From: Escherichia coli
GTDB taxonomy: Bacteria; Pseudomonadota; Gammaproteobacteria; Enterobacterales; Enterobacteriaceae
DNA length: 64,000 nt
NCBI RefSeq assembly: GCF_003334305.1
Contig: NZ_QOWS01000004.1
Direction: 5' to 3' (one strand)
How positions within the stretch are numbered: position 1 is the first letter of the stretch; each line of letters starts with the position of its first letter. A program made the translations under genes and the position numbers. Below the pieces are notes generated by a model. The model had not been told where the DNA came from. It was given only the letters and a program-made list of their open reading frames with translations, and did not search any database. Shown piece by piece: positions 51,912 through 55,923 of the stretch.

Positions 51912-51927
51912 ACTGAAACGCTTCAGC
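51912..51927. promoter_or_regulatory. Candidate Cra (FruR) operator upstream of epd
   Basis: ACTGAAACGCTTCAGC is a near-perfect palindrome of the Cra half-site TGAAAC, about 120 bp upstream of the epd start. Confidence 0.4.
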
Positions 51928-52017
51928 TAGGATAAGCGAAACGTGGAATAAAAGGAATGATTGTCCAGTCAAAGAAAGCAATTATCTGACTTACGTCACG
52001 TTTTCAGCCCCGCCCCT

Positions 52018-52033
52018 GTGGAATTTATTCCAC
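52018..52033. promoter_or_regulatory. Perfect 16-bp palindrome in the epd / ECF-operon divergent control region
   Basis: GTGGAAT-TT-ATTCCAC; an additional GTGGAATAAAAGGAATG half-site-like repeat lies at 51943-51959. Confidence 0.35.
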
Positions 52034-52161
52034 TTTGCAGAATCACGAATAAGCGTAGCAAAATCTTTTCGTTGTGCCGTCACAAACCCTGACTTATATC
52101 AGAATATGACTGATGCAGCGTCGATATTATCCGCAATACGTCCGAGTTTCGGAGTACTCCA

Positions 52162-52593
52162 ATGATGACATTGCCCTACCCATATTCTTCCTCCGCACGC
52201 TTTTACGCACTGCGCCTCCTCCCCGGGCAGGAAGTTTTTTCCCAGCTACACGCTTTTGCACAGCAGCATCAACTTCATGCCGCCTGGATTGCAGGCTGTA
52301 CCGGTAGCCTGACTGACGTCGCCTTGCGCTATGCCGGGCAAGAAGGCACCACGCTCCTGAACGGTACATTCGAAGTGATCTCACTAAACGGCACGCTGGA
52401 ACAGAGTGGTGAGCATCTTCATCTCTGCGTTTCCGATCCACACGGCACGATGCTTGGCGGTCATATGATGCCCGGCTGTACCGTGCGGACCACGCTTGAA
52501 CTGGTGATCGGTAGCCTTGAGGAACTGGCGTTTAGCCGCCAACCTTGCGCGCTTTCTGGTTACGACGAGTTGCATATTTCCCCCGTTAAATAA
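52162..52593 (+). CDS. Small cytoplasmic protein, tentatively PPC/DUF296-like
   Basis: 143-aa ORF with GGAG RBS 8 nt upstream; no TM segments; pattern LRLxPGxEV...GSL..V.LRYAG....LNGTFEVISLNGTL...HLHL.VSD..G...GGHMMPGCTV.TTLELVI resembles the DUF296 fold. No match to a K-12 protein that I know. Confidence 0.55.
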   Translation: MMTLPYPYSSSARFYALRLLPGQEVFSQLHAFAQQHQLHAAWIAGCTGSLTDVALRYAGQEGTTLLNGTFEVISLNGTLEQSGEHLHLCVSDPHGTMLGGHMMPGCTVRTTLELVIGSLEELAFSRQPCALSGYDELHISPVK

Positions 52594-52615
52594 CTACTTT
52601 CAAAGAGGTTTTCTT

Positions 52616-53194
52616 ATGGCGCGTAGCCACTTTTCCAGTCAGGCACTGGTGTTGATCGTTATATCTATCGCCATCAATATGATCGGCGGGCAACTGGCCA
52701 GCATGGTCAAATTACCTATATTTCTCGACTCCATCGGCACACTTATTAGCGCGGTACTGCTTGGTCCGGTGATCGGAATGCTGACCGGCTTACTGACCAA
52801 TTTACTCTGGGGATTGCTGACCAACCCGATCGCCGCCGCATTTGCACCCGTCGCGATGGTCATCGGCCTGGTCGCCGGTTGCCTGGCGCGAGCGGGTTGG
52901 TTTCGCACCCTGCCAAAAGTCGTTGTCAGCGGCGTGATTATTACGCTTGCGGTAACGGTCGTCGCTGTACCGCTGCGTACTGCGCTGTTCGGCGGTGTCA
53001 CCGGTAGCGGAGCCGATTTGTTCGTTGCCTGGATGCACTCGATGGGGCAAAACCTGGTGGAGTCGGTGGCGATTACGGTGATAGGCGCGAACCTGGTCGA
53101 TAAAATTCTTACAGCGGTGATTGTCTGGCTTTTACTGCGCCAGCTGCCGATTCGCACCACGCGCCATTTTCCGGCAATGGCTGCCGTGCGCTAA
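52616..53194 (+). CDS. ECF transporter substrate-capture (S) component, substrate unknown
   Basis: ORF 52517..53194; start MARSHF at 52616 behind an AAAGAGG RBS gives 192 aa with about six hydrophobic helices; its stop overlaps the next start (TAAATG). Confidence 0.6.
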   Translation: MARSHFSSQALVLIVISIAINMIGGQLASMVKLPIFLDSIGTLISAVLLGPVIGMLTGLLTNLLWGLLTNPIAAAFAPVAMVIGLVAGCLARAGWFRTLPKVVVSGVIITLAVTVVAVPLRTALFGGVTGSGADLFVAWMHSMGQNLVESVAITVIGANLVDKILTAVIVWLLLRQLPIRTTRHFPAMAAVR

Positions 53195-53902
53195 ATGCAT
53201 CCATTTACCTCATTAACACTGTGGGCATTGGCGGCCTGCACCACGCTTATCCTGCCCGCGCAGACCATTTTGCCAATCTATAGCGCGGCGACCTTTTTCT
53301 GCCTTATTGCGCTAAAGGCCACGCGGCGGCGGGCAAAATATGTCGTCTGGCTGATGTTCTCGCTGGGAGCCGGGCTGTGGCTGGTACACGGTGGCTGGCT
53401 ACCAGAATGGCTAAGCGGCACGCCACGCTCGCCAGAACGGTGGTCGCATGCTATTACGCTCTGGTTGCGGATTCTGGCGATTGTTTCAACCTCACAGTTG
53501 TGGATGCAGTACGTCCCCGTGCAATGTTTTATTCGCGCTCTGTTTGCTTCTCGCCTGCCGCCAGGCGTCGCTTATCTGTTTGCCGGGCCGTTATTGGTCG
53601 TTGAGCAGTTAAAACGGCAATTAGCGATTATTCATGAAGCGCAGCGTGCCCGCGGCGTGCCGCTGGATGAGGGCTGGTATCAGCGTTTACGTGCGATGCC
53701 CGCGTTAATTATTCCGCTAACACACAATGCGCTTAACGATCTGGCTGTCCGTGGTGCGGCGCTGGATATGCGGGCATTTCGGATCCACAACCGACGAACA
53801 ACGTTGTGGGCACCAGCCGATAGCACCCTACAACGCGTAGCGCGTTACACCATGATCTTGCTGATGCTGACAGAATTCGGAGCGTGGATATGGTTACGTT
53901 AG
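53195..53902 (+). CDS. ECF transporter transmembrane (T) component, EcfT/CbiQ family
   Basis: 235-aa polytopic protein with two Ala-Arg-Gly coupling-helix motifs (EAQRARGVP, LAVRGAAL). Confidence 0.65.
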   Translation: MHPFTSLTLWALAACTTLILPAQTILPIYSAATFFCLIALKATRRRAKYVVWLMFSLGAGLWLVHGGWLPEWLSGTPRSPERWSHAITLWLRILAIVSTSQLWMQYVPVQCFIRALFASRLPPGVAYLFAGPLLVVEQLKRQLAIIHEAQRARGVPLDEGWYQRLRAMPALIIPLTHNALNDLAVRGAALDMRAFRIHNRRTTLWAPADSTLQRVARYTMILLMLTEFGAWIWLR

Positions 53903-54567
53903 AACAGTTCCGTTATTGCCCGACACACTCAACGCATCCTCCGTTCTGTTATGACTTTCACTATGTCAAACCGGGGATGGTCGCCATCTTTGGTGACAAC
54001 GGCAGTGGCAAAAGTACGCTGGCACAGCTGATGGCGGGCTGGTATCCGGACTTTCTGCCAGGAGAGATAACAGGCACGGGGACGCTCCTCGGTACGCCCA
54101 TTGGGCATCTCCCGCTTAATGAACAATCCGCCACCATCCAGCTCGTCCAGCAATCGCCCTATTTGCAGCTCTCCGGCTGTACCTTTAGCGTGGAAGAAGA
54201 AGTTGCCTTTGGGCCAGAAAATCTGTGTCTTGCTGAAGCAGAGATTTCGGCGCGGATTGATGCCGCCCTGACTCTGACCGAGTGCCAGCCGTTGCGCCAT
54301 CGTCACCCGGCAACACTCTCCGGTGGAGAGACACAGCGCGTGGTCATCGCCTGCGCCATCGCGATGCAGCCAAAGCTCTTAATTCTTGATGAAGCCTTTA
54401 GCCGCCTGACTCCGCAGGCCAGCGAAATGCTGTTGCAGCGCTTACAACACTGGGCGTTTGAACGTGGTTCGCTGATTATTCTTTTTGAACGTCATCGCAC
54501 ACCTTTCCTGAACTACTGCCAGCAAGCGTGGCAATTGAAAAACGGAGCGCTCCAGCCACTATGTTAA
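53884..54567 (+). CDS. ECF transporter ATPase (A) component
   Basis: 227-aa ORF with Walker A GDNGSGKST, signature LSGGETQR and Walker B LLILDEA; its start overlaps the T-component 3' end. Confidence 0.75.
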   Translation: MDMVTLEQFRYCPTHSTHPPFCYDFHYVKPGMVAIFGDNGSGKSTLAQLMAGWYPDFLPGEITGTGTLLGTPIGHLPLNEQSATIQLVQQSPYLQLSGCTFSVEEEVAFGPENLCLAEAEISARIDAALTLTECQPLRHRHPATLSGGETQRVVIACAIAMQPKLLILDEAFSRLTPQASEMLLQRLQHWAFERGSLIILFERHRTPFLNYCQQAWQLKNGALQPLC

Positions 54568-55238
54568 CGTTAAATAAGATATCTTATCGCTGGCCTGGCG
54601 CGGCAACGGATTGTCTTTGCGACATTTCTCTGCAACTCAAACAAGGTGAATGGTTGGCGCTGACCGGCGACAATGGCGCGGGAAAATCGACGCTGTTACG
54701 AGTAATGGCAGGTCTTCTTACGCCCACAGCCGGTACGGTTATGCTGCAACAACAGGCGATGAAAAACCTGAAAAACCGCCAGCGCGCGGCAAAGGTTGGC
54801 GTACTGTTTCAGGAAGCGGAAAACCAACTTTTTCACAGCACCGTCGCTGACGAGATCGCATTTGGTTTGAAACTGCAAAAATGCCCGGCGGATGAAATCA
54901 CTCAACGTACCCATGCTGCCCTGCAATGTTGTCAGTTAGCAGACACTGCCAACGCGCACCCGTTGGATCTGCATAGTGCGCAGCGACGGATGGTCGCCGT
55001 CGCCTGCCTGGAAGCACTCTCTCCGCCACTATTGCTGCTGGACGAGCCGAGTCGGGATTTTGACGAAAATTGGTTGAGCGTGTTTGAAAGCTGGCTGGAG
55101 AAGTGCCGCCAGCGAGGCACGAGCGTCGTAGCAATCAGTCATGACGCCGCATTTACCCGGCGTCATTTCTCTCGTGTGGTGCGACTGGAAGATGGTCTAA
55201 TCAGGAACGTTAATCCACCAGACGATATTCACCCGTAG
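54561..55238 (+). CDS. ECF transporter ATPase (A') component with degenerate signature motif
   Basis: ORF 54528..55238; likely start MLTLNKISYR at 54561 (ATGTTAA overlap with the upstream stop). Walker A GDNGAGKST, Walker B LLLLDEP, H-loop SHD; the signature position reads LHSAQRR instead of LSGGQ. Confidence 0.7.
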   Translation: MLTLNKISYRWPGAATDCLCDISLQLKQGEWLALTGDNGAGKSTLLRVMAGLLTPTAGTVMLQQQAMKNLKNRQRAAKVGVLFQEAENQLFHSTVADEIAFGLKLQKCPADEITQRTHAALQCCQLADTANAHPLDLHSAQRRMVAVACLEALSPPLLLLDEPSRDFDENWLSVFESWLEKCRQRGTSVVAISHDAAFTRRHFSRVVRLEDGLIRNVNPPDDIHP

Positions 55239-55923
55239 CGGTCATCATTAAGGTCAAATTTGCAGGCAGACTCTCTTCCAGCACCCGGCGAACATTCGGC
55301 CCGTCGGTACGGTCATAAAAAGCTTCTGCGTCTGCCAGCGATACCCCTCCCGCCAGCTTGCGCCCTACCAGTCGTTCCCGCAACGCAGTAGCTGGCGCGT
55401 TGATAAAGATCGAGAAATCACAAAATTGCGCAAGCTGGCACCACTTCTCGTCGTCCAGCAACAACCAGTTTCCTTCGACGATGACGAGTGGTGCGGTAAC
55501 GTGCAACGCATCTTCAACAGGATCATGCTTTTGTCGATCATACTGCGGCCACGTACAATCCCCTTCCACGACCTGGCACAGATTTTCCGCCAGTTTCGCA
55601 ACGTCAAATGTCTCTGGTGCGCCTTTGAAGGGGCGCAATTGATGCGCATCCAGCCAGCTATTGTAATGGTGAAAACCATCCATCGGGAGCGTCTGGATAG
55701 CGGGTAATTCAGGGTCTTGTTGCGCGAGATATTCCCAGAAGGTAGTTAAGGTAGATTTACCCGTCCCCGGCGGAGCGCAAAGAAAAACCACCGTACGTCG
55801 CTGCGGACTTACCGTCTGTAAGGCCGCCAGCATACGCAGCAACGGTTTATGCACGCGTTCTATCTCTTCATCATGGTACTGCACTTGCACGTTCAGCCCA
55901 TTCACCGTTAATTCAATTTTCAC
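55210..55923 (-). CDS. yggC: P-loop kinase-like protein YggC
   Basis: 237-aa ORF with Walker A APPGTGKST; its 3' end overlaps the convergent ECF A' gene by 29 bp. Confidence 0.88.
   Translation of the reverse strand: MKIELTVNGLNVQVQYHDEEIERVHKPLLRMLAALQTVSPQRRTVVFLCAPPGTGKSTLTTFWEYLAQQDPELPAIQTLPMDGFHHYNSWLDAHQLRPFKGAPETFDVAKLAENLCQVVEGDCTWPQYDRQKHDPVEDALHVTAPLVIVEGNWLLLDDEKWCQLAQFCDFSIFINAPATALRERLVGRKLAGGVSLADAEAFYDRTDGPNVRRVLEESLPANLTLMMTATGEYRLVD

Follow-up and report, generated by a model that had tools for sequence, protein, structure and literature searches.

Genes between epd and yggC

The DNA analyzed here (the window) is a stretch of 64,000 nucleotides (nt) from an Escherichia coli chromosome (contig NZ_QOWS01000004.1 of RefSeq assembly GCF_003334305.1), in which a block of five genes lies between fbaA-pgk-epd and yggC-fumE-glpX-yggP-cmtA. 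The first gene of the block, at positions 52162 to 52593 on the forward strand, encodes a PCC-domain protein of 143 amino acids (aa) from an ATG start. This open reading frame (ORF) is a real gene: its match quality is far above that of a chance ORF, and it is identical to a RefSeq coding sequence (WP_000988693.1, "PPC domain-containing DNA-binding protein"). Judged by its sequence, the product is almost certainly E. coli LmiA, an already published virulence regulator induced by low magnesium, and we call the gene lmiA. The protein is identical to LmiA of strain O157:H7 at 141 of 143 residues (substitutions H36Q and V53I). The gene occupies the same position between epd and yggC as in O157:H7, with the same four downstream genes and a near-identical upstream region.

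lmiA is the first cistron of a tightly packed, five-gene operon for an energy-coupling factor (ECF) importer, consisting of lmiA and the genes for the components S, T, A, and A'. All four transporter genes are on the forward strand. The S component (52616 to 53194; 192 aa) was identified with Pfam (PF12822), and the T component (53195 to 53902; 235 aa) was recognized by a weak match to CbiQ (PF02361) and by its RefSeq annotation; its orthologues elsewhere are annotated as CbiQ. The ATPases A (53890 to 54567, with the start used in RefSeq) and A' (54561 to 55238) were assigned with NCBIfam models and RefSeq. RefSeq names these products "ECF transporter S component", [quoted passage not shown], and, in two cases, "ABC transporter ATP-binding protein". 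The stop codon of lmiA (52591 to 52593) is 22 nt from the ATG of the S gene, which is preceded by AGAGG, and a consensus scan of the window found no terminator-like site between the two genes. A overlaps the end of the T gene, and A' overlaps both A (7 nt) and the 3' end of the convergent gene yggC (29 nt). The short gap, the missing terminator, and the overlaps downstream together indicate a single operon.

A preliminary description of this locus had placed a soluble 143-aa protein at the head of an ECF operon, and this holds, with neither a signal peptide nor a transmembrane segment evident in the LmiA sequence. The ribosome-binding site that it proposed, GGAG, is present at 52151 to 52154 on the forward strand, 7 nt 5' of the ATG; the distance to the S gene, which it gave as 23 nt, is the 22 nt noted above.

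A conserved cassette in distant bacteria

PCC, S, T, A, and A' genes were directly consecutive, in the same order and orientation, in 78 of 80 loci located by a genome scan seeded with the PCC gene. The scan covered one genome per species. Because its patterns came from a close clade, this proportion is biased towards that clade, a bias that single look-ups of PCC relatives at 41 to 51% identity and loci seeded with the S component were used to offset. The 78 loci had PCC identities ranging from 93% down to 49% and came from many genera of Enterobacterales, Aeromonas, Ferrimonas, Wohlfahrtiimonas, the betaproteobacteria Laribacter and Craterilacuibacter, and Synergistaceae. The two exceptions in the scan, which had no cassette, were Flavobacteriales with PCC identities of 42 to 43%. 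Two further cassette loci were reached from individual PCC homologues. In the single look-ups, relatives at 43% and 51% identity likewise precede an ECF S component; for relatives at 45 to 46% identity (Bacteroidota and another lineage), no ECF S component follows the PCC gene. When the S component was the seed, a PCC gene was found immediately upstream in all three loci (Pseudodesulfovibrio, Paracoccus, and Mesorhizobium). The cassette thus occurs in Gamma-, Beta-, and Alphaproteobacteria, Desulfobacterota, and Synergistota.

Clustering of the neighboring ORFs from twenty diverse loci revealed no sixth gene common to different contexts. Since gene order is kept across loci and no other neighbor is shared, the five genes are a self-contained cassette that moves as one across at least four phyla, with the PCC gene as a constant member that accompanies one particular family of S components.

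The surroundings of two cassettes deserve mention. In a metagenomic locus (L086; 3284 to 12438), the cassette encodes a fused A-A' ATPase, and the genes flanking it are one of the homocysteine S-methyltransferase type, those of an amino acid ATP-binding cassette (ABC) system, and MetQ- and MetN-like genes. These neighbors hint at a sulfur amino acid context, which did not recur in the other loci. In Paracoccus yeei, the cassette is on a plasmid-sized replicon of 274 kb, next to acetone carboxylase/hydantoinase genes and with an rve-family transposase gene approximately 2 kb downstream; this setting is consistent with movement of the cassette as a unit.

An acidic PCC-domain protein with a putative metal site

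The resemblance to DUF296 proteins suggested by the preliminary description was confirmed: residues 13 to 120 of LmiA match the Pfam family PCC (also PPC or DUF296; PF03479) with an E value of 7.7e-29, covering model positions 1 to 116 of 117. This was the sole Pfam domain found in LmiA, and an NCBIfam search with the protein gave no matches. LmiA has the PPC fold of PH0802, 2HX0, and 3HTN, and solved structures are available for its Salmonella orthologue (2HX0/2NMU; E value of 4e-75).

LmiA is acidic, with a predicted isoelectric point of 5.65, a net charge of approximately -6, and only 6 lysine and arginine residues. The ECF-linked homologues are all net negative (-9 to -1; 88 of 88 distinct sequences). 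LmiA does not contain the AT-hook core R-G-R-P; neither RGR nor GRP is present in its sequence.

Residues R18, P21, A40, G48, R56, E71, G77, H85, H87, G99, H101, E113, and L137 were invariant in 41 diverse family members, and H85, H87, and H101 were also invariant across the 88 ECF-linked homologues, a clade in which R109, R126, C129, S132, and Y134 are additionally conserved. The closest fold to LmiA is that of the zinc-dependent acetolactate decarboxylase (ALDC). An hhalign comparison places H85, H87, and H101 of LmiA onto the zinc ligands H194, H196, and H207 of ALDC (4BT2), with a probability of 18%. This three-histidine site would be of the kind that binds zinc in ALDC, and we consider it a putative metal site.

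A PCC subfamily that is 40 to 47% identical to LmiA (P0139, P0183, P0142, and P0134) displays varied architectures, including an HMG-box-like fusion (recognized by eye), a gamma-glutamylcyclotransferase-like fusion, a long N-terminal region, and predicted lipoproteins. Several family representatives with PCC fusions look eukaryotic.

Components of the ECF transporter

The S component matches PF12822 with an E value of 1.2e-8. Its nearest NCBIfam model, "CD3073 family putative ECF transporter S component", scored 136 bits against a cutoff of 180, and a sequence search of the PDB with this component matched no solved structure. When the E. coli S component was used to search for proteins, the matches listed were all close relatives. 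The S component is much more conserved than the PCC protein: the E. coli sequence is 48 to 77% identical to the 11 further sequences, from Proteobacteria and Desulfobacterota, with which it was aligned. In the alignment of these 12 sequences, the invariant polar residues were N21, Q26, D38, S39, T42, T61, N62, T129, D134, S150, N159, D162, K163, and R180, and no histidine, cysteine, or methionine was conserved.

The CbiQ match of the T component is weak (E value of 2.3e-4), and an NCBIfam search with this component gave no matches. A and A' were detected by ECF_ATPase models with E values of 1e-35 to 1e-44, below the curated cutoffs. S, T, and two ATPases are encoded together, as in group I ECF transporters. 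The S component is not of the CbiM/NikM type, and no CbiN-like gene was found among the window ORFs. The label "cobalt" for such systems probably derives from generic CbiQ/CbiO naming.

Published regulation by LmiA

The statement in the preliminary description that DUF296 proteins are functionally uncharacterized in bacteria no longer holds for lmiA, because LmiA has been published with data on its regulatory role (PMC7667037 and PMC11657066). The earlier interpretation is supported in part: its family assignment and the linkage to ECF genes, which adjoin PCC genes in 78 of 80 PCC-seeded and 3 of 3 S-seeded loci, stand, and the uncharacterized status does not.

In enterohemorrhagic E. coli (EHEC), lmiA is carried by O-island 119 (OI-119), described as a 3.12-kb island on which lmiA is accompanied by two ABC ATPase genes and two hypothetical genes (Liu et al. 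2020, mBio, PMC7667037). PhoP binds GACTTACGTCACGTTTT in the lmiA promoter and activates lmiA at low Mg2+ in EHEC (PMC7667037). LmiA in turn binds to a motif of 17 bp within the LEE1 promoter of the enterocyte effacement locus (LEE), as demonstrated by electrophoretic mobility shift assay (EMSA), chromatin immunoprecipitation-quantitative PCR (ChIP-qPCR), and DNase footprinting, and activates ler; the same study noted the DUF296 domain and proposed H85, H87, and H101 as a zinc site (PMC7667037). [quoted passage not shown] Plasmid-borne lmiA complements deletion of the whole island (PMC7667037). For Salmonella, the five genes of the orthologous operon have been described as a putative ECF transporter that is "suggested to import Co2+" and is activated anaerobically (2024 mBio paper). 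The window contains neither LEE nor gad genes.

Sequence elements upstream of lmiA

The reported PhoP box GACTTACGTCACGTTTT lies at 51988 to 52004 on the forward strand. This motif, taken from PMC7667037, is matched exactly at one place in the window, against a chance expectation of 0. The box is identical in O157:H7, conserved across Enterobacteriaceae genera, and degenerate in strain K-12. A CRP-like element, TCTGA-N6-TCACG, at 51985 to 52000 overlaps the box. K-12, which is free of the island, shares this element in the form TCTGA-N6-TCACA, which is closer to a CRP site. A palindrome resembling a Cra site, CTGAAACGCTTCAG, is found at 51913 to 51926, 60 nt nearer epd. Both elements may serve the divergent epd-pgk-fbaA promoter, which we take to be controlled by CRP and Cra. 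Because the reported box overlaps a CRP-like site that possibly belongs to that promoter, the PhoP assignment might deserve a second look.

An FNR-like palindrome, CTGACTTATATCAG, at 52089 to 52102 on the forward strand, 73 nt 5' of the ATG, is a candidate class II activator site. This box, CTGA(C/T)TTATATCAG, occurs at a fixed position in most epd-adjacent cassette loci of Enterobacteriaceae. It reads CTGAT-N4-ATCAG in most genera, matching the FNR consensus TTGAT-N4-ATCAA at 8 of 10 positions. Outside Enterobacteriaceae, the box was not above background in the cassettes. A -10-like hexamer, TATTAT (52125 to 52130, forward strand; TAT(T/C)AT in the footprint alignment), marks a putative lmiA promoter; a sigma-70 consensus scan did not call a full promoter there and found no informative site in the leader. 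The center of the FNR-like box is approximately 41.5 nt 5' of the start site inferred from this hexamer, a spacing typical of FNR-activated (class II) promoters. The box, which goes unmentioned in published LmiA work, would fit the anaerobic activation reported for the Salmonella operon. A perfect 16-bp palindrome, GTGGAATTTATTCCAC, occupies 52018 to 52033, with the reported PhoP box on one side of it and the FNR-like box on the other. Of this palindrome, the right half, TTATTCCA, alone is conserved in other genera; we know of no factor that binds the palindrome.

The ribosome-binding site GGAG is part of a segment, ACGTCCGAGT(T/C)TCGGAGT (52138 to 52156), that is almost invariant across Enterobacteriaceae genera. 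A hairpin of 5 bp that takes in part of the GGAG can form in this segment (local fold of approximately -6.4 kcal/mol), which is a possible translational control element. A search for riboswitches and other RNA elements found none in the window leader (one chance-level match, with an E value of 5), and no RNA family reached its gathering score in ten diverse cassette loci.

Distribution in E. coli and relation to K-12

lmiA was present in 3,329 of 5,426 complete E. coli genomes and the full 3.4-kb block in 3,320. The copies form two allele classes, one with at least 99% identity (1,842 genomes, including O157:H7) and one with approximately 91% identity (1,468 genomes, including enteropathogenic E. 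coli [EPEC] E2348/69), with only 19 genomes between them. This search also found a truncated lmiA copy in one genome and one copy carried by a plasmid. The carrier isolates listed came from mice, an orangutan, an echidna, and water; because the best-matching genomes are thus animal and environmental isolates, the LEE target need not be present.

A blastn comparison of the K-12 epd-yggC region with the window showed that the island segment ("O-island 119"; 52012 to 55278) is replaced by 132 bp in K-12 (positions 1314 to 1445 of the K-12 locus, L003), where a degenerate version of the promoter-proximal sequence persists. The epd side of the window is 99% identical to K-12, and the yggC side (55279 to 56000) is 87.6% identical, with the last approximately 70 nt of yggC unaligned. 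Because identity to K-12 differs between the two sides, the position of the indel matches that of a haplotype boundary and of a change in the yggC C terminus. In the published view, the island was gained horizontally by pathogens. However, the cassette adjoins epd in approximately 35 loci from many Enterobacteriaceae genera, which makes loss from K-12 more likely than gain by EHEC. The simplest reading of this distribution, drawn without a phylogeny, is that the locus is ancestral in enterobacteria and was lost from K-12-like lineages.

Possible roles of LmiA

In our view, LmiA is probably a partner protein of the ECF importer that binds a metal or a ligand and that serves E. coli as a regulator, with a probability of approximately 0.6, a figure that includes the identification of the protein as LmiA. 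This reading agrees with published results on genetics and DNA binding, with the place of lmiA at the head of the operon, and with the invariance of the three histidines. The ancestral job of LmiA would have been tied to the importer, most likely as a metal- or cargo-binding sensor reporting the state of the imported substrate, and E. coli would have wired the output of this sensor to LEE and gad expression.

Several points weigh against this reading. In plant AHL proteins, DNA contact is made by the AT-hook(s). It is apparently from these proteins that DUF296 acquired its "DNA-binding" label, and contact with DNA by a PCC domain that has no AT-hook is not explained by the sequence or fold of LmiA. 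Signal-peptide-like or lipoprotein-like N termini were called, by a crude hydrophobicity test, in approximately 40 of 147 family cluster representatives; as these look exported, DNA binding is not a family-wide activity. The published binding data were obtained with N-terminally His-tagged LmiA and a handful of promoters. The reported 17-bp motif has no match with 3 or fewer mismatches in the window, including the lmiA promoter, and there is thus no sign of autoregulation through it. Finally, deletion of the transporter genes (z4268-z4271) left adherence and LEE expression unchanged (PMC7667037), so that any functional coupling between LmiA and the transporter is putative.

The three-histidine site could alternatively be catalytic. 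In that case, LmiA would primarily act as a metal-dependent (zinc-type) enzyme on the imported compound, hydrolyzing or decarboxylating it, for instance, and its effects on transcription in EHEC would be indirect, via a metabolite pool, or a result of moonlighting. We regard this as unlikely. No activity, decarboxylase activity included, is known for any PCC-domain protein, and ALDC is a two-domain protein of approximately 240 aa whose catalytic glutamate and arginine are outside the part aligned with LmiA. Moreover, the published EMSA, footprint, and ChIP-qPCR results show promoter binding, and complementation of the whole-island deletion by plasmid-borne lmiA means that the adherence phenotype is independent of the transporter (PMC7667037). 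The same histidines, the CbiQ-like T component, and the induction of the operon via PhoP at low Mg2+ (PMC7667037) would also suit a cassette that imports a divalent metal, either Co2+ or another cation needed at low Mg2+, with LmiA as a metal acceptor or metallochaperone or as a His-triad metal sensor. The first-gene position of lmiA also resembles CopY/CopZ- or ArsR-type arrangements. The S component makes this proposal quite improbable, however: it belongs to PF12822 rather than to the CbiM/NikM type, it is not accompanied by CbiN, and, unlike known cobalt and nickel S components, it has no conserved histidine, cysteine, or methionine. We found no uptake data for the cassette.

Invariant co-occurrence in a fixed order with the four transporter genes might instead mean that LmiA is a structural or gating subunit, docked on T or on the ECF ATPases to control transport, with no role in sensing or catalysis. 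This is very unlikely, since relatives at 42 to 48% identity occur without ECF genes, the conserved histidine site would be left unexplained, and LmiA phenotypes arise without the transporter (PMC7667037). We therefore rank the importer partner and regulator above the processing enzyme, followed by the metal acceptor or metallochaperone and, last, the passive accessory subunit.

A broader proposal, which we put forward tentatively and consider doubtful as a whole, is that the PCC clade is the obligatory fifth component of a distinct family of ECF importers in Proteobacteria, Desulfobacterota, and Synergistota. Its primary biochemistry would be metal-dependent binding or processing of the cargo at His85, His87, and His101, and virulence regulation by LmiA would be secondary, lineage specific, or indirect. 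If true, the cargo-binding or -processing reading would provide the first biochemical function for a prokaryotic DUF296/PPC domain.

The gene itself is already known: its product has been published as regulating adherence and acid resistance in EHEC. Absent from the literature that we searched is the view of lmiA as the invariant first gene of an ECF cassette found in distant, LEE-free bacteria, rather than as a stand-alone regulator acquired by pathogens. The residual value of the analysis lies in this phylum-spanning link between a PCC clade and an ECF family and in the contrast between the DNA-binding annotation and an acidic, AT-hook-less protein, the fold and invariant residues of which look like a zinc enzyme site rather than a DNA-binding module. 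This suggests that the annotation of DUF296 as a DNA-binding domain be treated with caution, and it reframes the question as one of what the importer carries and what the PCC protein does with that cargo.

Comparison with known systems

The nearest relative is O157:H7 LmiA, which has the same position, downstream genes, and PhoP box and differs from the window protein only by H36Q and V53I. The Salmonella orthologue STM3071 (2HX0/2NMU, "putative DNA-binding protein") and VCA0587 of Vibrio cholerae (2P6Y) are structural genomics depositions without functional data. Literature searches for PF03479, VCA0587, PH0802, and "PPC domain" returned only papers on plant AHL proteins or on an unrelated "PPC" domain. 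Plant AHL proteins have the PPC/PCC domain (PF03479) in common with LmiA but carry one or two AT-hooks, of which LmiA has none. In ALDC (e.g., 4BT2), with which human PTD012 is grouped among the closest known systems, the three-histidine zinc site aligns with H85, H87, and H101, and metal binding by LmiA is predicted on this basis. The sequence similarity is marginal, however; the ALDC family profile (AAL_decarboxy in Pfam) does not match LmiA, and the single 143-aa domain of LmiA contrasts with the two domains (approximately 240 aa) of ALDC. As for the transporter, CbiMNQO and NikMNQO have a CbiM/NikM-type S component together with CbiN/NikN, whereas the S component in the window matches only PF12822 and the CD3073 family. 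The locus shares with group I ECF systems (CbiMNQO/NikMNQO, BioMNY, and YkoEDC) the presence of the S, T, and two A genes in one operon. It differs from them in having no riboswitch in front, an S component from an uncharacterized PF12822 subgroup, and, as its first gene, a fifth one that encodes a soluble PCC-domain protein.
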